Shown: positions 30,955 to 53,844 of the stretch, piece after piece
Position numbering within the stretch: the stretch's first letter is position 1
Layout of the letters: each line of letters starts with the position of its first letter
Source of the DNA: Tubulanus polymorphus
Lineage: Eukaryota > Animalia > Nemertea
Direction: 5' to 3'
Assembly: GCF_964204645.1 (NCBI RefSeq)
Contig: NC_134032.1
Coordinates: 5,258,275-5,322,274, forward strand
Length of the DNA stretch: 64,000 nucleotides
Made by a program: the position numbers and the translations under genes
The notes under the pieces: model-generated
Databases searched by the model: none
What the model saw: the letters and a program-made list of their open reading frames with translations, nothing else
What the model was told of the DNA's origin: nothing

Positions 30955-31540
30955 TATTTTATAAATTAATATTCATAAGGAAATGTAGTCTCAAAAGTAA
31001 TTTTGAACCTTTATTATTCTTTGATTTATTCATTTAATTTGATTTTCTTCCAATGATTGTTGCATCGATTTTCTATCTTTATTGTGGAATAATACTAGAA
31101 ATCTTATATCCTCCCAAAAATCTTTAACAATTGAATTATATTTTTGATTTAAACCCCAAGTTGTTATCCCAAAATGTCTACCAGAGAAAGCTAGATAACA
31201 TAACTCACTTTCTTTAACTTTTGAATAATGTAAATTAGCACAATCATCTATGATGAATAATGTATTAGATCCTTTGTAAATATTGAATGCTACTTTTATA
31301 CAATTGTCTAGATTTTCTTTTACTGTTTTAGGATCTAATATAATAAACTTTTTTTATCTTAACTAAATCTCTATTATATGTTTTATTCAATTCATAAGTA
31401 GGACAGAATAATATTATATTATCAAAATGATTTTTATAAATAGTTTCTAATAAATCTAATATGAAATGTGTTTTACCACAGTTGGTTACTCCAGTAACTA
31501 ACATATTATGCGGTTCAAATATAAATAAATCTTTATTCAT
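30955..31540 (-). pseudogene. Packaging ATPase, frameshifted
   Basis: GVTNCGKT; colinear with 45346-45957. Confidence 0.88.
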
Positions 31541-32299
31541 TTATTCTTTTAGTTTTCCAAGATAAAATCCATTCATTAAATTTATCATCATACCCTTTAT
31601 ATTTCACAAGAGAATACTTTTTTCCTTTAAGAGTTTTTGTTTTGTAATACTTTTTCTATTTTGTATTCTATTTCATCTGGATTTGGTACAAGTGATAATT
31701 CTTGTTCATAAAAGTAACCTAATATTTCTTCATCTTTTAAATCTTCTTATTTATAAACAAAAGGTTTAGTTAATATTATCTTTTTAATCTTAAATATTTC
31801 TTCAGTAAAATTTGGAGTATAACCTTTATAAAATGTTTTCGATATTTAGATATTCTAACGTGTTGTCCAATTTAAAATTTTGGTTCTCCAAAATCATGTG
31901 TAACAAACGCTCCGTATAAATTATTCCAAACTATTTCTGAATTATCTTTTCAGTTTTATTTTTGATTGGAATACTCCATGCGTATCTACTGAATATATCT
32001 ATAACATTTAATATCCAAAAATATCGTTTATTGTATTCCTCTAAGTTCTTCATGTAAATTAAATCTGCTTGCCATTGTTGATCGATATATGAAACCATAA
32101 CTTTTCTTGTTAAATAATTTTTATCCATTTTCTTATGGATTTGATACGTTGGTTGATTTTGTAACCATAATCTTAGTTCAATATATTTCATATTTTCTTT
32201 ATCAGATTTAATTTTATCCCATAATTCTGAAATACTAGAATATGATACTTCACTCTCTGGGTTATAATATAAATCTCTTAAATATTTTTATTTTTTCAT
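31533..32299 (-). pseudogene. Integrase with an internal deletion removing the second D and the E
   Basis: SIPIKNKT joined near 31950 to the DNSEIVWNN region. Confidence 0.88.
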
Positions 32300-32305
32300 C
32301 TTCTT

Positions 32306-32650
32306 TTAATCCATTCGTAATAATCTTGGTTTATTTTCAATGGTTTTATCATTTGACTTATCTTCTGGTATAATAGGTTTATCATCGGAATCATTATTAT
32401 TAGATTTGAATTTATATTTATATATTACACCAGAGAATATAATAACTGTTACTAATCCAATTGTAACATATAATTCATTATTACTTCCAGCATTAGAAGA
32501 ATGAGATGGATTACCATTCGAATTAATAACAGATAATTTCTGTGGTTCATTTATATCAGTTAATTTCTTTTTCTTAGCTTTTTTTAATTCTGCAGATCTT
32601 TTAGCCCATTTAATTTGTTTCTCAGATCTAGGCTTAACATCTTCACTCAT
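32306..32650 (-). CDS. 114-aa basic protein with one transmembrane helix
   Basis: LYVTIGLVTVIIFSGVIY; TAAATG start; remnant homolog near 5080-5290. Confidence 0.7.
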   Translation of the reverse strand: MSEDVKPRSEKQIKWAKRSAELKKAKKKKLTDINEPQKLSVINSNGNPSHSSNAGSNNELYVTIGLVTVIIFSGVIYKYKFKSNNNDSDDKPIIPEDKSNDKTIENKPRLLRMD

Positions 32651-33200
32651 TTATTTTAGTTAATTTTTGTACTGATTCAATATCTTCTGATTTATTTTTA
32701 TCTTTGTATTCTATAGGTTTAATGTTAGAAAATGTTATAACTCCAGTAGAAATTAATGTCATAATTCCTCCTAATTGGAATGAAGCGTATCCAAACCATT
32801 TTTGCAGTTCTGTCATAACTAAGTAGTCATTTTTTAAATCAGTATATAATTCATTTTCTTCATCAATTGGTATTATCCGGTTACATAACTTAGAGTAACA
32901 TTTAACTATTCCATCACTTATAGAGTCGTTTATTCTAGCTAATCTAGCTTCTTCATATATTTCGAAATGTTTTATTACTTTATCTGGTTTCATGGCATCT
33001 AGTTCTTGATAAGTTATAATTTTTCCCAAGAAGTTTAGATTTGCCGCCGGCAATCAATAGTTCTAGATGGTGCTTACACGTCAAATAGTATTCATAATCA
33101 ATATTATAATCAATATTATTTTCAATTTTGGTTGGAATATCCTTATTATCACTAATGCCCAAATCATCTAAGATTTTTCAATATCAGATTTCTTTGACAT
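32643..33200 (-). pseudogene. Homolog of the 43802 gene, full-length with C-terminal hydrophobic segment, frameshifted
   Basis: CKHHLELLIAGGK; TYQELDAMKPDKVIK; FQLGGIMTLISTGVITF. Confidence 0.75.
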
Positions 33201-33481
33201 TTATTTTAGCAAAAAAGCGAAAAAAATATTATAAGTATTCTTCAAATGATGCTAATAACTCTTTGGGTTAATACTAGCTAGTTAAAGTTAAAGAATTTTA
33301 GTATTGACTAAGAATACTGGCTAGTTGAAGATATGTAATTTTTATTCAATTCTTATCAAAATATAAAGTATTCTCCTTTTGAAAAGAAATAATAGATTTT
33401 GAATAAAAATATAATAGAATTCATTATATAGTTGAAGTTATTGTTTTTTTTTTATATCTTCTATTTGAGATATACTAATCT

Positions 33482-34153
33482 TTAACCACTCAATAAAGAT
33501 TCAACATATTTTTCATTATTTGGATCAATATTCCATAATTCAATGAATTTCTTTGCATTATCTAATTGATCTATATATAATTTTGAATCTAGTTTGTCAG
33601 ATTTACTCATATTTTTTTTCTTTTCTAAAGGTCTTAGATTCTTCCAATTCCAAAATAACTTCTGATTGTATTCATCACTCATGTCAAATTTCGATATTGG
33701 TAAAACATGATCAATATGAAAATATTCACCATGATTATTCATATTCATTTTATCGTCGAACTGATATATAATCCACGATTTTAAGAATTTATCTGAACAA
33801 TCCAACAAATTTGTTAGTGTAACTGAACGCGTTTCTTTACTGAATAATTTTGATACTTTAGATCACAAACATTTTTTTCATTTTGTAATTAAAATCTGTT
33901 TGATATCTTTCCGTTTGATAATTGTTATTATACACTTTATTATGTTCTGGATTATTTGCCCGAAATTGTTTCATATGTTCTGGATTATTTTTGTAATATT
34001 GTTTATTATATAGTTTACGACAATTTTTGCAATAATAACCTTTACCATATTTAGTCTTTTTATCATTATAATATTCTGATAATGATTTATCTAATTCACA
34101 TTTTGAACATTTCTTATGGTGAATATTGATAGTTTGTGATGTTCTGACTCCAT
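33482..34153 (-). pseudogene. HNH endonuclease homolog
   Basis: GEYFHIDHVLPISKF...NLRPL; TAAATG start at 34153. Confidence 0.82.
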
Positions 34154-34300
34154 TTATAATTCATATTTCAAAATTAAAATTGTTTAACACGTTATAATCC
34201 TGTTCATTATTTCCTTTTCTTTTGTTTCTTCTCTTTTAAATTTTAAGTATTCTTCTAAATTGCAACCATAAGCAACTGTATGAATTCCATCATCTAAAAT

Positions 34301-35144
34301 CAGGGGCGGATCCAGACCGTATTAGCCGTATTGCCCAATACGGTCTAGAATTTTTAAGTGCCCTTCGAAATTTCACCGGCAGTATTTTTGACGGCATTAT
34401 TTCAGCAACCGCTAATTCCGTGTTTGTAATCCGGGCATAATTGTAAAATTAATCGGTATATACTGCTGCCGAGAAAGTGAGGAGAGATAATCATTTTGTA
34501 AAGCCTTTAATCATGATAAATTAAAAAGGGCACTTTCCGTTTGCAAGGGGCACTCATGCTTTAGATGAGGGCACCTTGTCCTTGCCTTTTCAGGGAGGGC
34601 TAAAGGGGCACTCGTACTTTAGAAGAGGGCACTATACGCGGAAAATGTTGGAGAAAAGGGCACTTTTTTGCCTAATTTTTAAAATTTTAGGGGCACTTTT
34701 GGTTTTGAAGATGGCACACGACATAAGGATAAATGTGAAGACGAGGCAATTTTTGCCGATTGTTAACAATGAAGGGGCACTTAGCCGTATTCTGTATAAT
34801 TGTTAAGGGGCACTTTTAAAGATTATAGGGGCACTAGGCGAAGTTGGCGACAACCATGCTTTCATGGGTTCGCCAGCTTCATTTTTTATCCGCATGTGTT
34901 GAAATCTTGTCTTGAATTCGTTTATTCTGGATTGCTCTGCTAGCCTCTAGAAGCCCTCTAAAAGCCTTTAAATGGTACCATATTTTCAAAGTTTTCTGGG
35001 GGTGGGCCCCCAGACCCCTCCCTATAAGGACTTCGCGCCTTCGGCGCTCGCATTGACCTGGATACTGGGTGTGCCCTAAGATCTGAAGGGTGCCCTTAAA
35101 TTTCCTTCCAATACTGTCTACCCATCCCCCTGGATCCGCCCCTG
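34301..35144. mobile_element. 844-bp non-autonomous DNA transposon (MITE)
   Basis: 15-bp TIR CAGGGGCGGATCCAG / CTGGATCCGCCCCTG; AAAAT duplicated relative to the empty site in copy F; many internal GGGCAC motifs. Confidence 0.92.
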
Positions 35145-36124
35145 AAAATATATCTTTTATCATCAAATGGGTTTAAACTTACCTTTTCAATTTCTTCAAT
35201 AATCATCTCGTGGTACTCAGATCTTAAACATTTCATCTTGTGTTTTCTAACTTCTTCATTGAATATACAATTGATGTAATCTTTGAAATGAATATTCTTT
35301 TCTACTCCGCTTTTGGTAATTCCTTTCAATTTCTTTGATTCATGAGTTTTAGTTTAATATGAATACATTTTAGATCGAATACCTATGAATTCTATCATTT
35401 CTTCACCTCCAATTTTTAGGATAATTACTGAAATCAAAATGATGTTTTAATCTTTTTAAATCATCTGTTATGTTATTAGTTTTTATCTTTAATATGTAAC
35501 TGTCTGTATCAAAATATAAGATTTCTATATGCTTTTCTCCAAGATGAGGTTGTAATAATAAATTTAGGGTATGTTTGTAAATGTCTTATTCTTTTACCAT
35601 TACTAACTAACTCAATATCATTTCTATTTCTAACAGTTTCACAAGTCTTACCAGAGAATGCATTATTCATTAACTTGAAGAAATCTTTCTCAAAATCAGT
35701 TTTAGCTTTAGTTCTCTGTTAAAGTCTATATATTTTTCCAACCATTTAGATTGACTAAATGAAATATATGTATGTACTTTTTTAGAATCATTCCTTGATT
35801 CAAATAGAATTTTAACATTCTATAATGTACTACATAATTATATTTATCTTCCTGAGTTACCATTAACTTTTCTGTATGAATATGATTTTCGGGTTTAATT
35901 CTTTTTTGTTAATTTGATAATTCTTCATGCGTAACAGTTTTATGTTCGGGACATTATGCTAGATTTCTAGATTTAAATTTCATGTTTTCAGGATATTCCA
36001 AATCTACAACAAAGAAGTAACCAGTATCTGAATCATCTGCAATATCTAGAATTCTTTTCTTCCAATCAAATTTATCATTATTTTCAGGTTGTAGAACTTC
36101 ACTTATTTCAACTGCTCCATAAGG

Positions 36125-37027
36125 CTTATTGAGGTACTTCTGAGGGATTTGCAGTTTGCTGACGATGCCGCCTTGGTCACCCACAGGAAAGAAGATCTGC
36201 AGCAACTCATGGACCGTTTTGCCCAGGCTTGCATAGACTTTGGGCTAACTGTCAGCATCAAGAAGACAAATATCCTTTGTCAAAACACCGATGACACACC
36301 AGAAATAGTCATCCACGACTGTGTGCTTGAAGTTGTCCACCAGTTCACCTATTTGGGTTCCACTAACTCTGATAAGCTGTCCTTGAAGTGCGAGATAGAT
36401 AGAAGAATTGGAATGGCATCATCGACATTCTCTCGTTTAACCAGTCGCGTCTGGTCCAACAACAAGCTCACAACGAGGACAAAGATAGCTGTCTACAATA
36501 CCTGTATTGTCAGTACCCTTCTCTACTGCAGCGAGACATGGACAACCTATGCTAAAGATGAAAGGCGACTAAATGCCTTCCACATGAGATGCCTCCGCAG
36601 AATTTTAGGTATTTCATGGCGTGACAGAATTACAAATGCTGCAGTCCTTGAACAGGCGGGTATTTCCAGTATGTACTCTCTGCTTAGACAGCGCAGACTC
36701 CGTTGTTTTGGTCATGTCCGGCGCATGGAAGACGCTCGCATCCCAAAAGATGTGCTGTATGGTGAGCTCACGCTCGGAAAACGATCCAGAGGCAGAGCTC
36801 ATCTACGCTACAAGGACAGCTGTAAACGTGACATGAAAGCTATTGACATCGATGTGAACATGTGGGAGGAGCTCGCAAAAGATAGATGTGGATAGCACCA
36901 GACTGTCAAGTCACATCTGCTCATAGGCGACGAGAAACTAGCAACTAGATGTACCCGTGCCAGGGACGTGAGAGGTCGACGATGTAATTCCATAGTCTGT
37001 TAAGACTGAAAGGGGCCTACTTACCTA
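36125..37027 (+). mobile_element. 5'-truncated RTE-clade LINE (RT C-terminal part, ORF 36149-36895)
   Basis: QFADD, FTYLGS, LLYCSETW, FHMRCLRRILGISW; 3' end CCATAGTC...GACTGAA...CCTACTTACCTACTT. Confidence 0.9.
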
Positions 37028-39029
37028 CTTGCTTGATGAATAAATGAGCATCACACCCTGATAAATTATGAAATATTACTGGAACAAAGTTAATTTTCTT
37101 AGCTTGTAAGTTACAATTCTCATGCACTACGCCTCTAAACTTTCCATTCAAATGATCATGGTCGCTAACTTTTTTATAATTAAATGTCTTTTCACAATAA
37201 TAACATTTATCAGCAAACTCAAATTCTTCTTTGTCTTCTACTGTCATAATTATTTCTTTATTTTTATTTAACAATTTATTAAATTTTATTTCATATTCAA
37301 TTAATAAGTCTCAAAAATGATTGATAACATTTTCATTTCTGTAATTATAATATTCACTTTTAATTAGTTCTGGATAATCTGATTTTATATATAACCTGAA
37401 AGCTGCAGCACTTTGATGAATCTTTTTAATATTATTTGTTATTAGAGGATCTGAATAATCAATTATATCATTTTCATTAGAATTTAATTTCTTTCTTTTA
37501 TAATATATTTCTTTTCTATCTTGATCAGTTAATTCCTTATTTAATGATTCAAAATCTCCATATATTACAAATGGTACTTTATTCTTGTAATTATATTTTT
37601 TGAATTCTAAAACTTTATCCTCTTCATTTGGTAAAACTATTTTACAATAATCATGATTTTCACATAATGATTTATGATTTAATAATAATGCCCTTTCAGT
37701 TCTGAATTTAGTTATACATTTTCTACATAGATATATTTTATTATCAAAATCATTTTCTGATTTGAAAAATAAATCAATTCTTTTAATCCACATATAATGT
37801 TTCTCATAATATAATATATCTATAATATCATTTGAATCATAATCTTTTGATAAATACAAAGGTTCTAATGTATAATGTTTTATATTATTACCTTTTGTTT
37901 TTGGTAATTTGACTAAATCAAATACATTTATCTTTATATTATTATCTCTTTCTATTTTTGGGATATTTTTAATTCTAACAGGATAATTATCTATCTATTA
38001 ATTATTTTCAAATAGTTTATAATGTGTTAATCTAAAACTATGTGTAATATCTTCTGTTGGATGTAAGCAACTTATAATTGACCATAGAAAACATTTATCA
38101 TCAGAATTTTGTACATTTATTACAGCATTAGTTTTAAATGGTAATTTAATATAACTTGATCCATTAATATCTGGTTCTTTATAATATGATAAATTATTTT
38201 CATCAATTGGTTTTGATTTAGTTAATTTATTATATTTTGTATTGTATACATAGAAAGTCGAAAATATTATTTCATCAAATATTAAACCTGATCCTTCAAA
38301 ATATTTCTCTTCTCTCTTATTTTTTATTTCATTATAACATTTGTCTAATTTATCATCTATATGTTGTTTTGAAATAATATGTTGTGAACGAGAATTTATA
38401 TTATATATTGGTTAATCTTCAGATTTTAAAAATTTAACTTTAGAAGATATACTTATTTTAGAGTATTCAACATCTGTAATCATTCTTATAATATTTTTCA
38501 TATTTTCTAAATGTTTTTTATTTTCTTCTAATGTTTTACCTTTATGAAATTTAAATTCAATAGCAGCTGGTCCAATATCACTTTAAAATGCTTCGGTTAT
38601 TCCAATATCTTTATTATCTAATGAATAAATATAATTTCTAACATTTTCCATATATGATTTCTTATTATTTAGAGTATCTTTTATTCTTTTAATTGTCTTC
38701 GGTTTATTTTTATCATTATCAAAATAATCTTCACCTAAAATATCATTATTCATATTTCTAATATGACTTTTAGATTTTAAATGTTCTTTATAATATCTTT
38801 TATCACTGAATGATTGATTACATGTATCACATTTCTTTTTCATGCTTTAATTCATCTAATTTAGTTTCTAATATATCATCGTTATATTCTAACTTTAATT
38901 TATTCTCTAAATGTGTTTTAGTTTTATTGTGTCTTGCTTTTTGAGATTTATCTATATCAATTTTACATGTTGAACAGTAGTACTTATTTGCTTCCATTTT
39001 AATATCAAATTTTTTATTAAAATTGAACA

Positions 39030-39405
39030 TAACACTTACCTCTCAACGCATCCCGCCGCCACGTGTGAGTCCCACCACGTGTGAGTCCCGCCTATTTATA
39101 CTACTCAACAGTGGGGAAAACCCAGCTGCGTGTTGAGGCTTGTAAATTATGAGGCTTGTGATTGGCTAGAGTAATGGGGAATACTCAACTGTGATTGGAT
39201 AGAGTAATATTCAACTGTGATTGGCTAGAGTAATGGGGAATACTCAACTGTGATTGGCTGGAAAAACTCAACTGTGATTGGCTAAAGTAATACTCAACTG
39301 TGATTGGCTAGTGTAGTTTTCTAGATGGATGGTTCTAGAATCAACATGTATTACGCAACATTCAACGTGTTGAGGCTTAATTTATGAGACTTGTGATTAT
39401 ATAGA
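39030..39405 (-). promoter_or_regulatory. CCAAT-box array, TATA box and splice-donor-like site upstream of copy D polB
   Basis: Six GTGATTGG (CCAATCAC on minus) at about 39158-39307; TATAAATA at 39100-39093; GAGGTAAGT at 39042-39034. Confidence 0.6.
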
Positions 39406-39527
39406 AGTAATAGGGTCTTAGTTGTTCTGTATCAAAGGTTGAATGGTCGAAAAATAAATGCGAGTGTGCGAGAATTTATTTTTCGACCCTTCGACCTTTG
39501 GTATAGAACAACTAAAACCCTATTACT
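39406..39527 (-). repeat. 122-bp hairpin right terminus of copy D
   Basis: AGTAATAGGGTCTTAGTTGTTCT...AGAACAACTAAAACCCTATTACT. Confidence 0.9.
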
Positions 39528-40225: not shown

Positions 40226-41442
40226 CAATTTTCTGATGTTGAGACTCTCCTGAATGAACGGAAAATTCAGCCCTACTCATAAGTGGCGATGGCAGATGCG
40301 ACTCGGCGAAGTATGTTCTATACACAGTGATTGATTTATTGAAGAATAAAATCCTTTGCATGTAACTTGTACAAGTAAGATCTTGATAAAGTTTTATGAT
40401 TTCGTAAAGTGTTTGGTATCATGAAAATAGCCCGGAAAAACTTATCAAATAATTCTTTGAGGCTGAACTGAAGATTATTCGTACTACGTTAATGAGCATG
40501 AATAAGACATCAGGTTCTGTAGAAAATCATTTTATCTTTGTTTTGAAATGATTCTTCATTATCTTCTGATGACTCTGGACAACTCTTCTGTGTAACTCAA
40601 TTTAGGTCTGCATTAAGTGGACAAGAAAGTAAACCTGCTTTTTATCCACCAGTAGCTTCAACCCATTACTTGCTTGGAAAACAATGGAATCAAAGTCCTT
40701 TGAAATTACAGGAGGTGATTTGGCACATGAAGATGAATACACTGATGGAGATGGAGCTTCTATGTCATCACTGTTAGAGATTAAGGACCCTTTTCCAAAT
40801 AAACACTGTTCTTTTTCAAGTCATGAAAATAGTTATGGCGTATGGTATGAGTGTGTGCGTTGTGGAGGTCAGGATGATGTGGACGATTTGGTAGTCAAAG
40901 TAAAGTTTCCTGAAGGATAGTAATCTTGTAACACTTTTGAAAGATATGTGATATGCGACACACGCACTTAACGCAGCTCCTTTCACAGTTCTTATTTTTG
41001 CCCACTAAGAACCTGAAAGATAAGAATGCAGAGCTCAAGAAATGAGATTCTTCCGGGGAGGGTGGATCCGAATAGACATAAACAAAATTATATAGGCCTT
41101 TGTATGGAGCTAGGCCTACTAGACGTAAATGTGATAGTAGGCTAAGCTAGTGCAAATGGTTTTCAATGGCCTAAAAGGGATGAAACCAAACGAAATTTTC
41201 TTGAACGGTTTGAGTTTCCGGTTATAAAAACCCTGAAATGAAACAAATTGAGTCGTATTTCTAGAATTGTTTGGGTGGATATGGAGCACCAAAATACATC
41301 AATAGGGTTGGAAGATTAACTCCATACCTACGCCCATGATGCCGACCTGTAAACCAAGTGGAAATTTGTTTGAAATGCACCCAAATTATGATAATTCCTG
41401 TTTTTCCAACTACGTTTTTCACTGTTAATGCGTTTATTAGCC

Positions 41443-41904
41443 AGTAATAGGGGTAATGGGCTTTCATACCAAAGGTCGAACGGTCGAGCCCATTAAAAAA
41501 CAAAACATTAAAAGTAATTAAAAACTATAATATATTTTCATAACCGCGTGCATTTTATATTAAAACTAAATATTTATTCTAAGATATCAATAATTTAAAA
41601 AGCATATTGTAAATAAATCAATTGGTCGCTCCGCTTCGCTCCGCTCCGCTCCGCGACCAATTGATTTATTTACAATACACAAATTCATATAATCAAATAT
41701 ATTCAAATAATAATAATTATTCTATTATTCAACTGAAATGCACGCGGTTATGAAAATATATTATAGTTTTAAATTACTTTTAATATTTGTTTTTAATGAA
41801 CTCGACCATTCAACCTTTGATATGAAAGCCCATTACCCCTATTACTCTTAAAATATTCATATAAATGAATAACATTTAAATCATTGAACTTCTAAAATCA
41901 ATTT
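41443..41904 (+). repeat. Left TIR of copy F; 41443-41846 is a self-complementary hairpin
   Basis: Reverse complement of 57888-58335; starts AGTAATAGGGGTAATGGGCTTTCATA, and TATGAAAGCCCATTACCCCTATTACT ends at 41846. Confidence 0.95.
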
Positions 41905-41926
41905 AGTAAAAAAATATGTATAATAA

Positions 41927-42580
41927 ATGGAACCAGAACAACCACAAACTATCAATATTACAAATAACACTGGTGTCATAAATATATACTACAAGAAATG
42001 TTCTAAATGTGAATTAGATAAATTAGCTTTAACAGAATTGAGTAAGCGTAAGATTAGCAAAGATGGTTTTCAATATTGCTGTAAAACTTGTTTTAAACTA
42101 TATACCAAACAATACCGAGAAGATAATATAGAACATTTTAATTATTATATGGCAGAATATATGAGAGAAAGATATCAAACAGATCTTAATTTTAGATTAA
42201 AACAATGCTTAAGATCTAGATTAACACAATTATTCAACAAAGAAACACATTCAGAAACACTATCTAATTTATTGGGTTGTACAAATGAATTTCTCAAATC
42301 ATGGATAATATATCAATTCGACGATAAAATGAATATAGATAATTATGGTGAATACTTTCATATTGATCATGTGTTGCCGATTTCTAAATTTAACATGAAT
42401 GATGAATACAATAAAAAACTTATTTGGGGTTGGAGAAATTTAAGGCCTCTTGAAAAGAAAGAAAACATAATTAAATCTAATAAACTAGATATACAGTTAT
42501 ATTTAGATCAACTGGATAAAGCAAAGACATTTGTTGAATTATGGAACTCACCACATAATGAAAAATACGTTGAATGTTAA
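41927..42580 (+). CDS. HNH endonuclease with N-terminal CxxC zinc motifs, NCLDV-like
   Basis: KKCSKC...CCKTC; LRSRL...LLGC...FDDKMN..NYGEYFHIDHVLP...NLRPL...N. Confidence 0.85.
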   Translation: MEPEQPQTINITNNTGVINIYYKKCSKCELDKLALTELSKRKISKDGFQYCCKTCFKLYTKQYREDNIEHFNYYMAEYMRERYQTDLNFRLKQCLRSRLTQLFNKETHSETLSNLLGCTNEFLKSWIIYQFDDKMNIDNYGEYFHIDHVLPISKFNMNDEYNKKLIWGWRNLRPLEKKENIIKSNKLDIQLYLDQLDKAKTFVELWNSPHNEKYVEC

Positions 42581-43539
42581 ACGCTTAGAAAACCGGTTTC
42601 TCTCGATCTATGTCAAACCGCCTGTATGTAATTGTATTAGGTTGTTTACAAAAGACATCTGTGCCGTATTTCATATTCAGTTGAATAGGGCGCACCTCAT
42701 TTGAATATTGATCGAACGTGCTATTTCAGTTGAAAAGGATTAATCAATTATATTACAAAAGAAGGAACATCTGTTGCACCAGACGGTGTTTAGCTAGTGA
42801 ATAACTACCAGTTATAAACGCGCAGCACATAAGCATAGGAACGTATTGGATATTCTCTCTTAAAACACGGTTTACAGTTCTAAATCTAAATGTAAGTAAA
42901 TATATTATGAAGTAGGGAAACCTTTAAACATATTTAAGTACAGTAATTCATTTTCACGACATCTTTTAGATTAAAATGGAATACAAAGATGAACCAGAAA
43001 TTCTAAGCCAACCATCGGAAAAGGAACTAATGCTGCTGGATAGTGAAACACAGGAATCAATAGAAATGGAGGATGAAACTCTCGTAACACACTGAAGGTC
43101 TTTAAGATATCAAAAAATGTAATCTCGATTGTATATATCTGTTTTAATATTGTATTGATTACTGTTAACTGTGTATTGCGCAATAACCGGTCCGATTGAA
43201 CCGCTTTTCTATTGTTCTCCATTGTTCTATTATTGATCGTTGTTAATGGCGGCGGTTGCTCAATATTGATTGGTTACAGTTCTATGTTTGAATGTTGTAG
43301 TTAACAGAATAAAAATATAACTGTGTATTGCGCAATAACCGGTCCGATTGGACCGCATTTCTATTGTTCTCCATTGTTCTATTATCGATCGCTAAAATTT
43401 GTATAATAAATATATCTGTTTATGAAATAATATTTCCACCAGTCGTTTCTTTGAATTTATTTTCAGTTGAGGATTTGATATCGAGTATCCGAAATGACTT
43501 ATCTGAACAGTTATAATTACTGCTCCTAATAGATAGACA
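42575..43539. mobile_element. ~0.96-kb foreign insertion inside copy F (unclassified, possibly LTR-derived)
   Basis: Absent from the homologous HNH-downstream region of copy D (33400-33500); higher GC; internal ~73-bp direct repeat (about 43167-43239 and 43318-43391); TG...CA edges but no TSD. Confidence 0.6.
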
Positions 43540-43801
43540 ATAGTAGTCAGATATCAAATAGAATTTAAATAAAATATAATAAAAAAACAATAACTTCAAC
43601 TAGCTAGTGAATTCTATTATATTTTTAATACTTTCTTTTCAAAAAGAGAATACTTTATATTTTGAATAGATTCAAATAGAAAATCTTTAAATTCAAATAG
43701 CTAGTATCAGTAGTCAATACTAGAGTTCTTTAACTTTAACTATCTAGTATCATTTGAAGAATACTTATAATATTTTTTTTTGCTTTTTTCCTCTAATATA
43801 A

Positions 43802-44264
43802 ATGTCAAAGAAATCGAGTAAGAATAATATTGATATTGAAAAGACATTAGATGATTTAGGTATAAGTGATAATAAAGATACAGTTGTTTCTAATTCTATT
43901 CAAGTTAATAACAATATAGATTATGAATACTATTTATATTGTAAGCATCATCTAGAACTATTGATTGCCGGTGGAAAAACTAAAGAGTTTTTAAATAGAA
44001 TCATTACTTATCAAGAACTAGATGCTATGAAACCCGATAAAGTAATAAAATATTTTAAGATTTATGAAGAAGCTAGATTAGCTAGAATAAATGATTCTAT
44101 TTCAGATGGTATTGTCAAATGTTATTCTAAGTTATGTAACCAGTTAATACCAATTGATGATGAAAATAAATTATATAGTGATTTGATAATAAACCTTTCA
44201 TACCAGAAAATAAGTCAAATCATAAAGTCATTGAAAGTAAATCTAAATTATTATTAATGGATTA
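43802..44264 (+). pseudogene. Conserved Polinton hypothetical gene fused by deletion to the tail of the next small membrane-protein gene
   Basis: 5' part matches 32643-33200; after about 44184 an alternative frame reads DNKPFIPENKSN...LLLMD, the C-terminus of the 114-aa ORF at 32306-32650. Confidence 0.8.
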
Positions 44265-44271
44265 AAATAAG

Positions 44272-45353
44272 ATGAAAAAAGAACAATATTTAAGAGATTT
44301 ATATTATAACCCAGAAAGTGAAGTATCATATTCTAACGTTTCAGAATTATGGAATAAAATTAAATCTGATAATAGTGATTTAAAATATGGTGAATTGAAA
44401 TCATGGTTACAAAATCAACCAACATATCAAATCCACAAGAAAATGGATAAAACTTATTTAACAAGAAAAGTTATGGTTCCATATATCGATCAACAATGGC
44501 AAGCAGATTTAATTGACATGAAGAACTTAGAAGAATACAACAAAGGATATTTCTGGATACTGAATGTTATAGACATATTCAGTCGATACGCATGGTCAAT
44601 TCCAATCAAAAATAAAACTGGAATAGAAGTGACAAATGCTTTTAAATCTATATTTAAAGAAGCTATTCCAGATAAGATACAATTTGATGAAGGTAAGGAA
44701 TTTTATAACAAACATTTCAAAAAACTATTATCTGATAACGATGTAAAATATTTTTCAACACACTCAGATAAAAAAGCATCTATTGTAGAAAGATTTAATA
44801 AAACATTGAAAACTAGAATGTGGAAATATCTTACTGCTAATGAAACATACAAATATATCGATGTGTTAGATGATTTGGTGAAAGGTTATAATAATTCTAA
44901 ACATAGTTCTATAAATATGAAACCTATACAAGCTAGAAAAGAAGATAATTCGGAAATAATTTGGAATAATTTATATGGAGCGTTTGTTACACATGATTTC
45001 GGCGAACCTAGATTCAAAATTGGACAACATGTTAGAATATCTAAATATAGAAAAACATTTTATAAAGGTTATACTCCAAATTTTACTGAAGAAATATTCA
45101 AGATTAAAAAGATAATATTAACTAAACCTTTTGTTTATAAATTAGAAGATTTAATAGATGAAGAAATATTAGGTTATTTCTATGAACAAGAATTATCACT
45201 TGTACCAAACCCAGATGAAATAGAATACAAAATAGAAAAAGTATTGAAAAAACTCTTAAAGGAAAAAAGTATTCTTTGGTGAAATATAAAGGATATGATG
45301 ATAAATTTAATGAATGGATTTTATCTAGTAAAATTAAAAGAATAAATGAATAA
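44272..45353 (+). CDS. Retroviral-like DDE integrase; chromodomain-like C-terminus displaced by a frameshift near 45250
   Basis: QWQADL, QFDEGKEF, ASIVERFNKT triad; YKIEKVL / KYSLVKYKGYDDKFNEWI split across two frames. Confidence 0.93.
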
Positions 45354-45957
45354 AGATTTATTTATATTTGAACCGCATAATATGTTAATAACTGGAGTAA
45401 CCAATTGTGGTAAAACACATTTCATATTAGACTTGTTAGAAACTATTTATAAGAATCATTTTGATAATATAATATTATTTTGTCCTACTTATGAAATGAA
45501 TAAAACATATAATAGAGATATAGTTAAGATGAAAAAGTTTATTATATTAGATCCTAAAACAGTAAAAGAAAATTTGAATAATTGTATAAAAATAGAAATT
45601 GATACTTATAAAGGATCAAATACATTATTCATTATAGATGATTGCGCAAATTTACATGATTCAAAAGTGAGAGAAAGTGAGTTATGTTATTTAGCTTTCT
45701 CCGGGAGACATTTTGGGATAACAACTTGGGTTTTAAATCAAAAATATAATTCAATTGTTAAAGACTTTAGAGAAAACATTAGATTTCTAGTTTTATTTTA
45801 TAACAAAGATAAAAAATCTATGCAACAATCATTGGAAGAAAATCAAATTATACCTACTGAATTACATGATGAATATATGAATAAATTAAAGAATAATAAA
45901 GGTCCAAAATTATTACTGAGACTACAATTTCCCTATGAATATAAATTTATAAAATAA
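45346..45957 (+). CDS. A32/FtsK-like DNA packaging ATPase
   Basis: Walker A GVTNCGKT, Walker B LFIIDD, A32-type GRH..I.TW.L.Q motif. Confidence 0.93.
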   Translation: MNKDLFIFEPHNMLITGVTNCGKTHFILDLLETIYKNHFDNIILFCPTYEMNKTYNRDIVKMKKFIILDPKTVKENLNNCIKIEIDTYKGSNTLFIIDDCANLHDSKVRESELCYLAFSGRHFGITTWVLNQKYNSIVKDFRENIRFLVLFYNKDKKSMQQSLEENQIIPTELHDEYMNKLKNNKGPKLLLRLQFPYEYKFIK

Positions 45958-45979
45958 CTATTTATATATCTATGTATTA

Positions 45980-46060
45980 GAAACCCTAATACCTGGTACC
46001 CCATTAGATACCCTAATACCTGATACCCTAATACCTGATACCATACCTGATACCTTAAAT
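45980..46060. repeat. Short ATACC(C/T)-rich tandem repeat between convergent gene blocks
   Basis: ATACCCTAATACCTG reiterated, followed by CCCCCTTTTTT. Confidence 0.7.
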
Positions 46061-46116
46061 ACTTAAAACCCCCTTTTTTATTTACTATTATTTTATACAA
46101 TTTTCAACCTTTATTA

Positions 46117-46953
46117 TTATTTGATTGTTAGATAATTAATTTCTGAATCACTTTCACTATCAGACCCTAACAATTTATTCAAATGCTCTACTGTATCTTC
46201 ATAAATAATTGGTTTATTGATATACTTATTAGGCATCTCAACTATATCTTTATTTTCTGATTTATGTTTCATAGAATCTTTATTATCAAAGTTATCATTA
46301 TTTTCTACTTTATGTTTCATAGAATCTTTATTAGTGTTTGCTCCTAATATTTCATTTACAGTGTTTGATTCTAATATTTCATTAGCATCGGTTAGATCTA
46401 ATTCATCTTTATTAGGTGTTGCTAATAATAAATCTTTATATAATTCTTTACCATTTACTTTTTGATTTGAAACAAATTTTGTAACATATCTAAATGGGTG
46501 TTCTATAAATTCTTTTAAACCAACACGTTCTATTACATTAGTAATATGTGAATTTGTATTCATATGTTTATTCCAATTTGATGGAGCGTTTGAAAATTCA
46601 CCTTTACAATAATTACAATAATTTCTATTTTTACTAACATTTAATATTATTGCATTATTATACGTAGAAGGTATTACATTATTAGATGTAGTAGGTATTA
46701 CATTATTAGATGTAGTAGGTATTACTGTAGTAGGTATTACTGTAGTAGGTATTACATTATTATCAATTACATTACTTAAATTATCAACAACACCACTTTT
46801 ATTATTATCGATTTCTATTAGTTTAGTTTTATAAATTTTGAAAATAGGATCAAATATCAAAGCTATATTACAAGGTATTACATAATATAAACCATCATTA
46901 TTTTCATGTGTATCGATGTATGGAATATGTTTATATACTTTACCTCCTTCCAT
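46117..46953 (-). CDS. Zinc-finger protein with internal peptide repeats
   Basis: CNYC-x12-H-x5-H finger; VIPTT repeats; DNKDSMKHK-type duplicate; acidic tail. Confidence 0.7.
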   Translation of the reverse strand: MEGGKVYKHIPYIDTHENNDGLYYVIPCNIALIFDPIFKIYKTKLIEIDNNKSGVVDNLSNVIDNNVIPTTVIPTTVIPTTSNNVIPTTSNNVIPSTYNNAIILNVSKNRNYCNYCKGEFSNAPSNWNKHMNTNSHITNVIERVGLKEFIEHPFRYVTKFVSNQKVNGKELYKDLLLATPNKDELDLTDANEILESNTVNEILGANTNKDSMKHKVENNDNFDNKDSMKHKSENKDIVEMPNKYINKPIIYEDTVEHLNKLLGSDSESDSEINYLTIK

Positions 46954-46985
46954 TTATTATATATATTTTTATTAAAGTTAAAATT

Positions 46986-48233
46986 TTAATACATAACACT
47001 ATCTAATTGTGAATTTACAATATTTAATTGCGCGTCAGATATAATATAAATGTGCATTTTAAAATTTTTGATTCCTTTATTCTTTGTCATGAATAATTGT
47101 ATTCCATCTTTAGTGTTTTGTAGTTTTTTTCCAGAACCATGTAATGAATTATCCTCTGTTGTTCTAAAATCTAACCATAATGCATATTTATTGCCGGTAT
47201 AATAATCAATTTGATTAATGTTACAATTTTCAGATGATTTTACTTTTTCATTCATAAAATGTTTTCTAATTTCTGGCCATTGATCAATCATTCTCATTCC
47301 TTGACAAAATATTTTATTTGCTATTCCTTCGATAGTTATTTCTACTTTTGTTATTTCAGGATTATAATAATTATCAACATTTATTGCGCCATTAGTATAT
47401 GTTGCAATGGTAAAAAATATTAATATACCTTTAATAGATCTTCTTAAAAAGTTAATATTCTCATTAATTATTTCATCATTTGCATTAATAGTTACGGTTT
47501 TAAATTTATCAATATAATCATATAATAATGAAAATCCTTGATTGTACTTAGTTTGAATTATACTTGAAATATTTTCATCAGTTACTGTATCATATTCTAA
47601 ACATATATTCGATAATTTATAACTCATATCTTTATTAACGCTAGATAATACAATTTCATTTACAGGAGCAAATGTTATTTCGAATATAATATCTTCTTGA
47701 ATTGCGTATTTATATAAAGGTGCATTATTATTTATCAATTCAAAGTCTAATGGAATTTTATATTTGCTTCCATATATACTTTTTATCAATTTATCTACAG
47801 CATTAGTTAATATTGCGCTATTAGCTTCTGATCTTAATTTATTTTGGTTTTCTGATTGGATGCCTTGAAATATCATATTATTTCTATTTTCTTTAGTTAA
47901 CCATAAATCTTTATAATGCATAAATAAATTATAATCATCTAATGAGAAAACTGTTTCCGGACCAATCTTTATTGTTAACTTTTTAATCAAATATCTTCCA
48001 ACATTATCAACAACATAATTATTATTATTACCGATTACTTTTATATCGGCCGATAAATAAATACTATTTGGAACATAAAAAGTATTTTGTGTTAATCGAG
48101 GAATTCTAACGTATAAAGTTTCATCGGGATTAATATTTGAAGGGTTATGAGTAATTATACGATGTGATCTTTCTGCTTTAATAGCATTAGATATTCTATG
48201 ATTCTTAGAAGGATTGATATAACTCCCACTCAT
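46986..48233 (-). CDS. Major capsid protein (double jelly-roll, predicted)
   Basis: Intact 415-aa beta-rich ORF; PSNINPDETLYVRIP, IKKLTIKIG, YKIPL, LSNICLEYD, YALWLDF resemble Polinton MCP; size and context fit. Confidence 0.8.
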   Translation of the reverse strand: MSGSYINPSKNHRISNAIKAERSHRIITHNPSNINPDETLYVRIPRLTQNTFYVPNSIYLSADIKVIGNNNNYVVDNVGRYLIKKLTIKIGPETVFSLDDYNLFMHYKDLWLTKENRNNMIFQGIQSENQNKLRSEANSAILTNAVDKLIKSIYGSKYKIPLDFELINNNAPLYKYAIQEDIIFEITFAPVNEIVLSSVNKDMSYKLSNICLEYDTVTDENISSIIQTKYNQGFSLLYDYIDKFKTVTINANDEIINENINFLRRSIKGILIFFTIATYTNGAINVDNYYNPEITKVEITIEGIANKIFCQGMRMIDQWPEIRKHFMNEKVKSSENCNINQIDYYTGNKYALWLDFRTTEDNSLHGSGKKLQNTKDGIQLFMTKNKGIKNFKMHIYIISDAQLNIVNSQLDSVMY

Positions 48234-48257
48234 TTATTTAACAAAAAAATTGATTAT

Positions 48258-49736
48258 TAATTTTTAATCATGGTTACTTGATATCTTTTGATACCATATT
48301 TACTAACCCAAAAATAATAGCACTTACAACTGTAATTAAAAATAAAATAATATGTTCAGCAGCAAAGTTAATAATGTTTCCTGCAGATTTCAATATAAAA
48401 CCAAAAATTGATGCAATAATTCCTGGCAATGCTGCAGCAGATTTTTTAGATAGTTCCCATAAATATTTTGCTAATTTCTTTAAACCATCTTTAACTTTAT
48501 CTTGTATAGAATTATTATCATTCGGGGTTTATCCGGTTTATTGGGAGTAGGAGTAGATTTCAAAGAATTTGATATTGCTAAACAAATTGTTGTAAATAAC
48601 ATAGTTACAGCTGTTAGAATTGAAAGAATTGTTATTCCTTCTAATTTAAAAAATAACTTTATTCTATCTTTTAATGATATTCCAGAATTTGGTTTTATTA
48701 GATATCTTTTAAAAACATCTTTTAATCTTTTAAAATTATTACCAAATTCTTTTAATAATATATCTCTTTCACCTTTTTGTACTTCTAAACTATCTTTTAA
48801 ATTATCAATTTCTTTTTCTAAACGTAATTCTTTTTGTCTATACTCTATTTCATCAATTACTTGTCGTTCTAAATCAGACTTTAGTTGTTCTATTTCTTCA
48901 TTTGCATTAGTTAATTCTTTTTCCAAATACATAATTTTTTGATCTCTTATACTTTTATTATGTGCAATTTTATCAGCTTCATTTCTTATACTTATAATTT
49001 CTCTAATTGCTTCATCAGAAAATATATTTAAATCTTCTAATTGTTGATCTGTTGCATCAAGTAATCCATTCGGTAAAAGTTTTTCAGTTTGAACTTCGTT
49101 TGATTTAATTTTACTAGTTTTGGAAGTTTTATTCTGTTCAGAAGTTGTTTCTGTTTTTGAATTATTTTTGATTGTTTCAAATAATTCATTAATTCTTTGT
49201 TTAAATACTCTTTCATTTTTAATAATTTCTTCTTGTGTTACATTTTCTATTTCATTACTATTTCTTATTCTTTTAATTCTAGATAGGTCTAACTTAAGCA
49301 AAGTTGATTCTTTTAATATTTTGTGTTGTTTTTTATAAGAGATATCAATATAATAATCACCAGTCAAATGATAATAATATTCACCATCTAAAAATTCTAA
49401 ATTTTGTGCTAAAATTCTGGCGTCTCTAAAATTTATATTATATTCAGATCTTTCAAATATATGTTGTAATCTAAGCGCTTGGTTTATATTTTCTAAATCT
49501 TGTCTTATTAAATATGGATTTTCATTTTCAGGATTTATTCTCGATCTAGTTCTTCTATCAAATTCATCTGTTGATGGGACTTTAGAACCACTATCTGCTA
49601 AATTAGAATTATATGTTGTATCATTATCATTATCAATATTAGTATCAGCAGTCATATAATCATCATTGTTAGTATTGGCATCATCATTATTTCCCATGTT
49701 TTCCATTTCATAATCTTCTCCACCTTCTACATCCAT
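48258..49736 (-). pseudogene. Acidic/coiled-coil protein with C-terminal membrane segments, frameshifted near 48525
   Basis: 418-aa ORF; the hydrophobic tail (AAALPG.IASI.GFILK...) continues in another frame and is in frame in copy B (18898-19323). Confidence 0.75.
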
Positions 49737-49752
49737 TTACATAATAAAAAAA

Positions 49753-51176
49753 TTAAAATTTAAAATATAATATTCCTCCGATTACAATTCCTATACAAGT
49801 TATAGCTAATTTAGTATTTTCATGGGATTTATTATCATCATTTAATTATATCATGTTGAATAATATCAGTTTTTATATTTTCTGATGTATTATAATCTTT
49901 TATTTTAGAATCATTATTTAATTTAATATTCTTAGTTTAAGTTTCTGTTGATTGAATGTGTTTTTTATTTTTTTCACCTTCCATTAATTTTGGAGCAGTA
50001 ATAATCTTTTTATTTATATCATTCAATCCAAATGAATTATTTATTGTTGCAGTTTTAATAAGATTATTATAACCAATTATGTTCCCCATCTTTAATACTA
50101 AATCATTAGAAATACTTAATAGATTAGGGCCTATACAATAATTAAGCCTTACATGAGATTTATCTAAATAATTTTGATATCTTATAATGTTTTCTGGAAT
50201 CGATCTATTTTTATCATTATGAATTGAATCTTCAAATAAAACTTTAAATTGTTTTTGTGTATCGAATGATGTATTCAAATTTCCAAATATCGGTGATCTT
50301 GTTTCAACTTGTGATCCTAGAATACAAATCAAATAAGTTCTAATAGATTGATTTATTCTTTCTATACCTGATTTAGTAAAACCATCACTATTTTCTAAAA
50401 TAAAATAAACCCAACCATTATTGTTTTCTTGTTTTAAATGATCATAAAATTTCGGTAATTTATTGAAATTTAATGTTTCTAAATCCTTTGTTTCTATTTT
50501 ACCATAACCTAATTTATTATTATAGATATTATAAAAACTATTAGATGGTATGGGAAGTGCACAATATTCTGCAACCTTTTTAGGGCAAGGAAGTGATCTT
50601 ATTGTTCCAATTTTTGTTCTAAAATCAGAATTATTTATATCTATATCAAATTCATTACAAATTTTATAAAACTTTGATAAATTAATATTATTATCTAATT
50701 CTTTAATCGATCCTGGTAAAGCACACTCCTGATAAAGCATATATATATAGATATAGATCCTGGTAAAGCACACTCTAATTCATTTAATATTATTCTGATT
50801 TGAAAGTATGTATGAAATCTAAATAAACTTTGAATTAGTTTATATTTAGAATTATTCAAATGATCATTCCAACTTATTCCACATCCTGTTGTTGAACAAT
50901 AAACAGCAAAATTTAATTGATTCTGCCAATACTTCATATTAGATTTTAATAACCATTGTTTTTCATCTTTCAATTTTTTAAAATTAATTAAATATACATG
51001 AAATATATTTTCCATCTTTGCATTAAAATAATTAGTTTCAGTAACATAAATTTCTAAATTAGTTAATGAATCTAAAACTTGATTCTATATGTTATATCTT
51101 TATTAAAATCTATTGCTGAAATATTATATTTAATTGATTTATTATATTGGAAAGCTTTTGGAAAACTATCTGCCAT
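49753..51176 (-). pseudogene. ~460-aa conserved Polinton protein with C-terminal transmembrane anchor, disrupted
   Basis: Pieces 50695-51015 and 49937-50773 join (WQNQLNFAVYCSTTGCG; INQSIRTYLICILGSQ); tail LAITCIGIVIGGILYF; homolog at 16644-17948. Confidence 0.78.
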
Positions 51177-51192
51177 TTATATAATTAAAAAA

Positions 51193-51627
51193 TCAATAAT
51201 TAACTAATTCTTTTAATAATTTATCTTGTTCTTCAACTGTTATATGACCATTTAAACTTATGATATAATCTAGTGTGTTCTTTAATTTATTAATTTCTTT
51301 TATATTAGTTTTAATTTTTTCTTTATTACTTTTTATATTTAATTTTGAACTTATACCGGTTAAAACACTTGAACTTAATCCTAACACACCAATTGATATA
51401 GCTAAAGGTGTTAATGGGCTGAATATTGCTAGAAATGTTATTACAGAACTAATTGTAACCGAACCACTTATAATCAAATAATATATAATTTTACTTTTTA
51501 GATATTTTTTCTTTTTTATCTTTAAGTCACTTTCAAATTCTAATATTTGTTTTTCTAAATATGTTTTTAATTTAGTTTTATTTATATCATGAGGAATAAT
51601 ATCAATACTATCAACTTTATCTTCCAT
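51193..51627 (-). CDS. Two-helix membrane protein
   Basis: IIYYLIISGSVTISSVITFLAIF and LAISIGVLGLSSSVL; homologs in copies B and D. Confidence 0.75.
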   Translation of the reverse strand: MEDKVDSIDIIPHDINKTKLKTYLEKQILEFESDLKIKKKKYLKSKIIYYLIISGSVTISSVITFLAIFSPLTPLAISIGVLGLSSSVLTGISSKLNIKSNKEKIKTNIKEINKLKNTLDYIISLNGHITVEEQDKLLKELVNY

Positions 51628-51646
51628 TTATTTAGCAAAAAAATAA

Positions 51647-52069
51647 TTAATTAGTAAACTTATAAGCAACAAATATAACAATAACAGTTCCGCCTAAAAT
51701 CCAAATTATTTCATATTTCTTCTGTTCATTACTTGGGGTATAATAATCTGACAATTTAGGTTTGTATAGATGTAATTTTTCTTTATTGGTTACCGCGTTA
51801 TATAAACTCATTGCATCATCAACTGATTGAAAATCTCTATGTGAAATCTTCTGATCATATAATTCTTTATTGATGTAATCCATATAGTTTTGTCGTTTTT
51901 CTGTATATTCTTCTGCAGCTTTATTATATTTCTCTAACGCTAAGTTATGCCTTCTTTGTTCTCCTAATGAACTATTTTTATCAATATGTTTAAATAAATA
52001 ACCGCCACCAGTAAATGCTAAAGCGTTAACAATTGCCGATCCTATAATAGTTATAATTGCAGAAGCCAT
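51647..52069 (-). CDS. Small protein with N- and C-terminal hydrophobic helices
   Basis: MASAIITIIGSAIVNALAFTGGG...; IIWILGGTVIVIFVAY; conserved across copies. Confidence 0.75.
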   Translation of the reverse strand: MASAIITIIGSAIVNALAFTGGGYLFKHIDKNSSLGEQRRHNLALEKYNKAAEEYTEKRQNYMDYINKELYDQKISHRDFQSVDDAMSLYNAVTNKEKLHLYKPKLSDYYTPSNEQKKYEIIWILGGTVIVIFVAYKFTN

Positions 52070-52093
52070 TTATTTAACAAAAAAATTATGCAT

Positions 52094-52315
52094 TTATATG
52101 GGAGGAATATATTTTTGTTTTTCCAAATAATCAATAGTTAAATTAGATAAAGTAACTGCTAATGTTAATTTTAAAATATCATTTATATCAAATCTATCAA
52201 CATTAACACTTCCCATCTTGAATACTTTTTTTAATACCATTGAATAACCAACAGTTCCAACTGATAGTAATGCGCCATTATATAATCCAGTTATTATCCA
52301 CTTATTATCACTCAT
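52094..52315 (-). CDS. 73-aa hydrophobic protein
   Basis: Nearly identical intact ORF at 29542-29763. Confidence 0.75.
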   Translation of the reverse strand: MSDNKWIITGLYNGALLSVGTVGYSMVLKKVFKMGSVNVDRFDINDILKLTLAVTLSNLTIDYLEKQKYIPPI

Positions 52316-52675
52316 TTATTTATCAAAAAAATTACTATCATCAAAATATTTAGTTATCTTAGTGATGATTATTTCAACATTTATTTCATTACTAGTTTTA
52401 TGATTATCATATATTTCAATTATTATTTTTTTAATATCATCGATGATAAAATCTTCATCTAATTCATAAAATCTTAAAGATTCTCTAATTAAATTAGTAA
52501 TCTTTTCTACATTTAAAGTTTCTTTATCTATTGTTGTTTCATACTCAAATGTTGTTTCATTATAAAATGCAATATTTTTGATATGTGTAATTACATAATT
52601 AACGTTAAATTTCATTTCTTTCTCATGTTTAAAATCAAACCCAAAACATATACTCGGTCCAACAGTTATATTCAT
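52316..52675 (-). CDS. 119-aa hypothetical Polinton protein
   Basis: Open homologs at 15683-16024 and 29182-29541. Confidence 0.75.
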   Translation of the reverse strand: MNITVGPSICFGFDFKHEKEMKFNVNYVITHIKNIAFYNETTFEYETTIDKETLNVEKITNLIRESLRFYELDEDFIIDDIKKIIIEIYDNHKTSNEINVEIIITKITKYFDDSNFFDK

Positions 52676-52691
52676 TTATATAATGAAAAAA

Positions 52692-53447: not shown

Positions 53448-53461
53448 TTATTTTACATATT

Positions 53462-53815
53462 TTATTCGAAATCTATTTCATGGTGCCCTTTTTCATTATT
53501 ACCTTTGTATACGAAATAGAAATATCCAGAACATAATTCTTCTAAATCTTCACTTGATAATCTATGAAATCTATCCGGTAAATATGTTCTGAATTTATAT
53601 GTATTTCCTTTTAATCCTTCATATTCTAAGTGTATAACTAATTTATCTCCATAGTTATTAGTAACTGTATCAATATTTGTAATTAGATATTTCTTATGGA
53701 TTATTAATTCTGTTAACTTTTTGAATTTATAATCTACAGATTTTACATTTGTAGTATCTTTAATTCTATCTAGAAATAATTTGTTGTTCTCACTGTGCGC
53801 TTGTTTACTCTCCAT
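53462..53815 (-). CDS. 117-aa protein, possibly an OB-fold ssDNA-binding protein
   Basis: FKKLTEL...YLI...TNNYGDKLVIHL...FRTYLPDRF; conserved in copies B and D; function inferred. Confidence 0.6.
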   Translation of the reverse strand: MESKQAHSENNKLFLDRIKDTTNVKSVDYKFKKLTELIIHKKYLITNIDTVTNNYGDKLVIHLEYEGLKGNTYKFRTYLPDRFHRLSSEDLEELCSGYFYFVYKGNNEKGHHEIDFE

Positions 53816-53844
53816 TTTAATAACATATTTTTATTAAAATTTGA

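Follow-up and report, generated by a model that had tools for sequence, protein, structure and literature searches.

Self-complementary tips in a Polinton family of the nemertean Tubulanus polymorphus and their possible function as fold-back ends

Both tips of a 16.9-kb Polinton at positions 41443–58335 of the window, i.e. of the whole 64 000-nucleotide stretch of DNA analysed here, are self-complementary, with a palindrome of 404 bp at the left end (41443–41846) and one of 390 bp at the right end (57946–58335). This terminal hairpin belongs to a Polinton family and not to one copy. An earlier reading of the sequence alone had proposed that such a structure could serve as a working fold-back end, and this idea has gained ground, as the palindrome recurs at other lengths in sister copies, its arms change together (in 10 of 45 columns) and mismatches between them favour the 3'-terminal strand. 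Whatever its function, a fold-back of the 3'-terminal strand is likely to have been under selection in these elements.

Palindromic tips and gene content of the element

With TIRs of about 490 bp, a 6-bp TSD and a length of 16.9 kb, the element at 41443–58335 passes Polinton/Maverick criteria, for which ranges of 100–1500 bp, 5–8 bp and 13–25 kb, respectively, have been given (bioRxiv 10.1101/2023.08.22.554363; here and below, papers are cited for those parts of their text that were available). The TSD, TTAGCC, is located on the forward strand at 41437–41442 and, in identical form, at 58336–58341, and it adjoins the outer AGTA ends only, not the inner AGTA. The left TIR (about 493 bp, 41443–41935, forward strand) aligns at 94% over 495 columns to the right TIR (57857–58335, reverse strand), which includes the right palindrome as delimited by this alignment and by folding. 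As the TIR outruns the hairpin, it continues inward of the inner AGTA for about 90 bp that are not palindromic. The earlier statement that each TIR is itself a hairpin thus holds for the outer 404 and 390 bp, but not for the TIR as a whole.

By self-alignment and folding, the left palindrome, which has no strand of its own, consists of an outer arm (41443–41555), one side of a bubble (41556–41604), an inner stem (about 41605–41630) and a TCCGC loop, followed on the return side by the inner stem again, the second bubble side (41678–41735) and the inner arm (41736–41846). Pairing extends over 103 of the 113 aligned columns in the outer stem and about 25 bp in the inner stem, the bubble sides without pairing measure about 49 and 58 nt, and the loop holds five TCCGC-type units on the left (one of them TTCGC) and two on the right. 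Self-complementary tips of roughly 400 bp with precisely these parts had been described before from the letters alone, and alignment and folding confirm them; so does the count of the terminal sequence, since AGTAATAGGGG or its complement is present at 41443, 41836, 57946 and 58325, i.e. four times per element. Computational folding, which had been proposed as a check, gave predicted DNA folding energies of −119 to −132 kcal/mol, as compared with means of −28 to −33 kcal/mol for 40 dinucleotide shuffles per hairpin (z −24 to −32). In the predicted fold, the 3'-terminal base of the tip, a T, pairs flush with the inner A, giving the geometry of a primer–template junction.

The genes between the tips include an rve integrase (44272–45282, forward strand; PF00665, E 1.2e-9), an A32-like packaging ATPase (45346–45957, forward strand; PF04665, E 1.5e-12) and a probable major capsid protein of 415 aa (46986–48233, reverse strand). 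The last of these matches Capsid_N (PF16903) below cut-off (E 0.011), as do 13 of 32 aligned relatives (E<=0.05, likewise below cut-off); it has 927 homologues, and a PDB sequence search with it gave no match. One homologue at 54% identity (P0046) is filed under a Bartonella assembly, where it is probably host contamination. Among the 18 ORFs of the element, Pfam searches matched neither a protease of the kind expected for an adenain-like maturation enzyme nor a HUH nickase with SF3 helicase. A non-coding gap of the element carries a 74-bp direct repeat (96%; 43166–43391).

The protein-primed DNA polymerase (pPolB; PF03175, E 3.6e-13) is spread over three ORFs on the reverse strand (53845–57865), to which Pfam, alignment and a structure model assign zinc fingers, a terminal-protein (TP)-like domain, a vOTU domain and the start of the exonuclease (56141–57865), an EndoVII/HNH insert (55890–56120) and the polymerase (53845–55815). 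In the relatives P0121–P0123, pPolB is unbroken, i.e. encoded by single ORFs of 1319–1365 aa with 68–71% identity over the N-terminal region. The EndoVII-like insert, already named in the earlier reading, is confirmed by a match to PF02945 (E 2.3e-6). A second, stand-alone EndoVII/HNH-like nuclease of 217 aa (41927–42580, forward strand) adjoins the left TIR on its inner side; it matches PHROG 1035, endonuclease VII (E 2e-13), finds no match in Pfam, and has homologues at 56% in two of the relatives described below (L009 and L010). For the first pPolB ORF, an alignment-based model (mean pLDDT 75, used in place of a single-sequence model with pLDDT 36) places an alpha/beta domain at residues 136–256, and structurally the model most resembles Y-family polymerases, over 110–125 columns (E 0.015, where the tool draws its line at 0.001; probability 0.98). 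Terminal proteins resemble Y-family polymerases structurally, and their linking Ser or Tyr sits beside a Gly between helix 2 and strand 4 (PMC11161782). Ser241, within a GSG, occupies this place and is conserved in 73 of 74 aligned rows; in the same alignment, the vOTU residues Cys307 and His405 are kept in 74 and 73 of 74 rows, respectively. Given this TP-like domain and these conserved residues, protein priming looks retained in a Polinton that also has terminal hairpins, as judged by model and alignment.

The hairpin in sister copies, reads and relatives

All four complete ends in the window are palindromic, with lengths of 404, 390, 152 and 122 bp, different centres and unrelated loops. 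The 152-bp palindrome (14345–14496) terminates a truncated sister copy with homology to about 20073 and is followed by the inner sequence CTTAAAATATT, as in the main element. The 122-bp palindrome (39406–39527), which lies some 380 bp past the start of polB in another sister, has no TSD of its own and the usual inner flank is missing; it is the probable right end of a copy at 28.2–39.5 kb, whose left end is a lone inner arm (28130–28206, start approximate) that has lost its outer arm. Like the 404-bp palindrome, these two were recognized by alignment and folding and have no strand.

Several other features of the window accompany these copies. Decayed sister Polintons with 72–90% identity cluster at 14345–20073, 24049–27709 and 28130–39527, with fragments at 36–3239, and their gene modules are rearranged, the 117-aa gene coming next to the hairpin in the sisters and polB being continued by the EndoVII-like gene. 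One sister polB is interrupted by a GC-richer insertion of about 840 bp with inverted ends CAGGGGCGGATCCAG (34303–35144), which is probably a small DNA transposon. Between the polB start of a sister and the 122-bp hairpin, a tract at 39100–39400 consists of tandem CTGTGATTGG units, which are CCAAT-box-like, and AGTAAT(GGGG) motifs, and could be a TIR of a different type or have inserted separately. Tandem arrays are present at 4079–4373 (period about 73–128 bp, with internal palindromes) and 5665–6131 (period 108–114 bp), and a 298-aa ORF outside the element (62105–63001) has a weak GDSL-like lipase match below cut-off (PF13472, E 1.4e-5).

Raw reads of the same species, taken from about 12% of one run of total genomic DNA (X5), extend this picture to the genome. 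Read depth is 3–6 on two flank bins, about 1150–1800 on the hairpin body and about 650–900 on the adjoining gene, which occurs at the left end only; this suggests a few hundred ends, roughly two per element, with the single-copy depth that underlies this estimate being poorly fixed. At the outer tip, two read analyses found 2249 and 2545 loose-end reads, whose flanking sequence is mixed, as expected from many insertion sites. Joints within reads also revealed shorter hairpins of about 90–150 bp, in which the first 36–57 bp of both arms are kept (seen in the 15 rows listed of 39), and Logan contigs of three further runs (X1–X3) break inside the palindrome.

Relatives outside the species were sought in a metagenome scan, which covered 23 of 64 parts and from which 80 of 553 confirmed loci were retained, and in scans of viral contigs, where the pPolB alignment found eight distant loci, while the capsid candidate, its alignment, the integrase and two DNA patterns found no match. 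None of the 90 loci carries a complete terminal palindrome, most of them being short contigs without ends. One locus, L010 (78% to P0121), starts with a 16-bp apex stem and an inner arm ending in TATTACT, followed by the 117-aa gene, polB and the EndoVII-like gene; this start would fit a contig broken at the apex of a palindrome. L012, with 64% pPolB identity to P0121, has an outer arm and no inner arm. Its tip region (L012:157–360), with the outer tip motif at 30 bp, stands on a 6.5-kb contig that has none of the 13 other ORFs of the window. Four more distant loci (L006, L031, L070 and L007; 26–40% pPolB identity) have AGTAGT ends, that of L070 being uncertain, and no terminal palindrome, yet L006 and L070 share the HNH motif in pPolB. 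Since L012 lacks an inner arm and HNH-bearing distant relatives lack the palindrome, the hairpin is confined to a lineage and independent of the EndoVII insert in polB. The link between the two that had been drawn from the window is accordingly weak, and the stronger proposition that every HNH-bearing pPolB has hairpin ends is ruled out by L006 and L070. The stand-alone EndoVII-like gene occurs in two of the 90 loci (L009 and L010), too few for a statement on linkage. Non-palindromic TIRs in other members, which had been named as evidence against a hairpin function, do exist outside the close family, as in L012.

Some further candidates were set aside. Two matches from a pattern scan of prokaryote genomes (L089 and L090) are not palindromic at the match and were judged to be due to chance. 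Palindromes at contig ends in L083 and L058 are possible assembly fold-backs, that in L058 mirroring coding sequence. Hairpins of 166–168 bp without AGTA tips just downstream of distant pPolB genes (L083:4776–4941 and L088:5567–5734) are either real ends or assembly artefacts.

Covariation and asymmetry of the arms

In the alignment of the four hairpins, 10 of the first 45 columns have changed in both arms together, transversions included. Variants in the reads are mirrored as well, with even frequencies in the two arms at 41453/41836 (29%/34%), 41458/41831 (36%/36%), 41468/41821 (41%/47%) and 41547/41744 (71%/74%), and less even ones at 41467/41822 (37%/53%) and 41551/41740 (41%/71%). As an argument for selection, this has to be set against templated repair, which alone can produce mirrored arm changes. 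The mismatches that do occur are not evenly distributed between strands: nine of ten distinct transition mismatches pair as G·T on the 3'-terminal strand (one-sided binomial p 0.011), one transition and two transversion mismatches run counter to this pattern, and in all four hairpins it is the 3'-terminal strand that folds better, by 3–10 kcal/mol. Because the hairpins are related and C>T/A>G deamination of one strand gives the same bias, this p value overstates the case and the statistic is suggestive only; three of the nine G·T sites are CpG.

One difference between the arms is fixed. At 34 nt from the tip, all four hairpins have C in the outer and T in the inner arm. This position is part of a conserved motif, AGG-Y-Y-GA..GGTYGA, found 30–31 bp from the tip, whose outer form, AGGTCGAACGGTCGA, lies at 41473–41487 on the forward strand, with C at 41477 in the alignment as opposed to the T-type inner arm (A at 41812). 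The motif is also present in L010, in its inner, T-containing form, and in L012, in its outer, C-containing form. Even where a single arm is left, its type corresponds to its place, with T in the inner arms that stand alone at 28 kb and in L010, and C in the solitary outer arm of L012. Rare exchange between the arms is indicated by two joints within them at which reads switch strand (7 and 6 reads).

In line with this asymmetry, all four hairpins in the window have the same orientation. The variants diagnostic of a flip, 41477 C>T and 41812 A>G, do not appear among the 40 listed of 55 read variants, so the flip/flop isomers that had been suggested as something to look for do not show up as a frequent form. 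Judged by the loose ends at the inner AGTA (below), less than about 18% of ends are solo hairpins or flipped outer arms, which is a bound and not a count, since reads are placed on the better-matching arm and can thus hide flips.

Possible functions and relation to known systems

By analogy with viral hairpin ends, we tentatively favour a model in which the fold on the 3'-terminal strand primes second-strand synthesis and the fixed arm difference makes resolution one-sided. In this model, TP-primed strand displacement would begin at the open outer AGTA end, and the 3' end of the displaced strand would fold flush on the inner AGTA and be extended, so that a 17-kb panhandle would not be needed. 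Another round of protein-primed synthesis, running through the closed end, would yield a dimer with one palindrome shared between its halves. The C-type arm alone would then be nicked by a nuclease of the element, for which the stand-alone EndoVII/HNH protein is the likeliest candidate, such that the ends would be rebuilt in one orientation, and the integrase would insert the open-ended duplex with its 6-bp TSD. A precedent for the asymmetry is the left end of MVM, where a bubble restricts resolution to one side. What counts for fold-back priming are the palindromes at four of four ends, the mirrored arms, the G·T strand bias, the single common orientation, the TP-like/vOTU module and the separate EndoVII-like gene; against self-priming, an element with intact protein priming could in principle do without a DNA primer, and no extrachromosomal, hairpin-closed or dimer forms were seen in the reads of total genomic DNA. 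The complete hybrid cycle, i.e. protein priming at open ends, hairpin self-priming and one-sided resolution by the element's own EndoVII-like nuclease via a single conserved G·T mismatch, is rather doubtful as a whole. If true, the adenovirus-type and the parvovirus/poxvirus-type modes of replicating ends would be bridged by a living lineage.

An alternative that would dispense with self-priming is that the folded 3' end recreates a duplex AGTA at which TP and pPolB start protein priming, replacing the TIR-to-TIR panhandle, with the inner T disabling the inner site for the integrase or for origin proteins. Such a local origin agrees with the retention of the TP-like domain, the linking-site Ser and the vOTU, with the mismatch bias towards the 3' strand and with the existence of HNH-bearing relatives without hairpins, and a single orientation would follow even without a nuclease. 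We nevertheless regard it as unlikely, because any polymerase could readily extend a flush paired 3'-OH, which would need to be blocked, and because the complete TIR persists at 94%, so that the long panhandle has not been lost. Alternatively, the hairpin could have no selected role at all, if fold-back repair of damaged 3' ends maintained the symmetry of an old terminal duplication and the G·T bias were due to deamination. That palindrome length and centre vary freely (90–404 bp, with unrelated loops), that relatives manage without a palindrome and that strand-switch joints testify to arm-to-arm exchange would all be in keeping with such a by-product. Homogenizing repair should, however, erase the difference at position 34, which is fixed and lies in a motif shared at 30–31 bp with L010 and L012, making this explanation distinctly unlikely.

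Other readings place the function of the fold outside of replication. Element ends might extrude as cruciforms from the chromosome and be cut diagonally by an EndoVII-like or host resolvase to release a hairpin-capped element. The junction would then fall exactly on the boundary between element and host, two EndoVII-like domains would be at hand and the 122-bp hairpin without TSD could be accommodated; yet both strands would have to pair, whereas the mismatches favour one, the 49/58-nt bubble would block branch migration in the long form and solo hairpins are not abundant, all of which renders this rescue from the chromosome improbable. A role as RNA, with an outward transcript folding by way of G·U pairs and feeding small-RNA or termination pathways, could draw on the 3'-terminal strand being favoured still more as RNA (by 8–31 kcal/mol), but is quite improbable, as RNA would not need the flush fit to the DNA tip, the flanking genes face inward and Rfam gave only two sub-threshold matches. 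Finally, the hairpin had been thought capable of mobilization as a MITE, inserted at element ends or escaping from them, in favour of which one can cite its AGTA ends facing both ways and the 39406–39527 copy without its usual inner flank. This is very improbable, since the hairpin alone has no TSD, X5 depth does not fall across the inner AGTA at 41846 (2447 just before and 2478 just after), and loose ends at 41846 are absent from the six best-supported rows (smallest 558 reads, ahead of 195 further rows), i.e. there are fewer than 558 as against 2545 at the outer tip. As an abundant form, a MITE is largely ruled out by the absent TSD and the steady depth.

The ends of this family are short and well delimited, and they follow three rules that can be measured: pairing on the 3' strand, a mismatch fixed at position 34 and a single orientation. 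With two candidate nucleases in addition, priming and resolution can be tested on oligonucleotides. To our knowledge, the exit of Polintons from the chromosome and the start of their replication are a model without direct evidence.

The closest known systems are Polintons with a nuclease-bearing pPolB (pPolB2, bioRxiv 10.1101/2023.08.22.554363; TP-vOTU, PMC11161782), with which the element shares the TP-like and vOTU domains, the HNH insert, rve, the ATPase, TIRs, a 6-bp TSD and an AGT-type tip; its putative membership in pPolB2 is read from the HNH insert and not from a tree. Unlike in these elements, the TIR tip here is self-palindromic and reads AGTAAT rather than (AGT)2. Neither 'hairpin' nor 'palindrom' occurs in the available text of the nematode paper (10.1101/2023.08.22.554363) and of the vertebrate Maverick survey (PMC8097293), and no description of terminal palindromes in animal pPolB Polintons was found in the accessible parts of the literature searched (including PMC11296320, PMC12220804 and 10.64898/2026.10.13.758929), the coverage of which is incomplete, such that an earlier mention is possible.

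Parvovirus hairpins are likewise 3'-terminal imperfect palindromes with a bubble, to which the present ends compare in being able to self-prime in the predicted fold, and some parvovirus termini occur in one form, i.e. in a single orientation, only (PMC8242256). In contrast to parvoviruses, the Polinton is an integrating pPolB virus-like transposon in which no HUH Rep/NS1 was found and AAV-type flip/flop was not seen. Poxvirus telomeres resemble its ends in being AT-rich imperfect hairpins whose mismatches matter; they are, however, covalently closed flip/flop isomers with mismatches that serve packaging (PMC8956199), whereas flips are rare at most here.

Within the wider group of virus-like elements, palindromes in TIRs beside the TSD, together with a proposal of hairpin priming, have been reported for Halocafeteria seosinensis virophages (subtypes 1, 2, 5 and 6) and a PLV (subtype 4) (bioRxiv 10.64898/2026.07.28.741278), so the concept as such is not new. 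The location inside the TIR and next to the TSD is the same in both cases, but the Halocafeteria palindrome measures 52 nt (subtype 5) and goes preferentially with non-pPolB replicases, as opposed to 90–404 bp with pPolB and TP kept in the present family (10.64898/2026.07.28.741278). Arm covariation, strand bias and fixed asymmetry are not reported in the available text of that preprint's section on hairpin priming (10.64898/2026.07.28.741278). The present family adds the co-occurrence of such a palindrome with a terminal-protein module that has been kept, together with a mismatch bias towards one strand and a fixed asymmetry of the arms. Terminal hairpins can thus coexist with a retained terminal-protein module, against the trend in protist virophages and PLVs.
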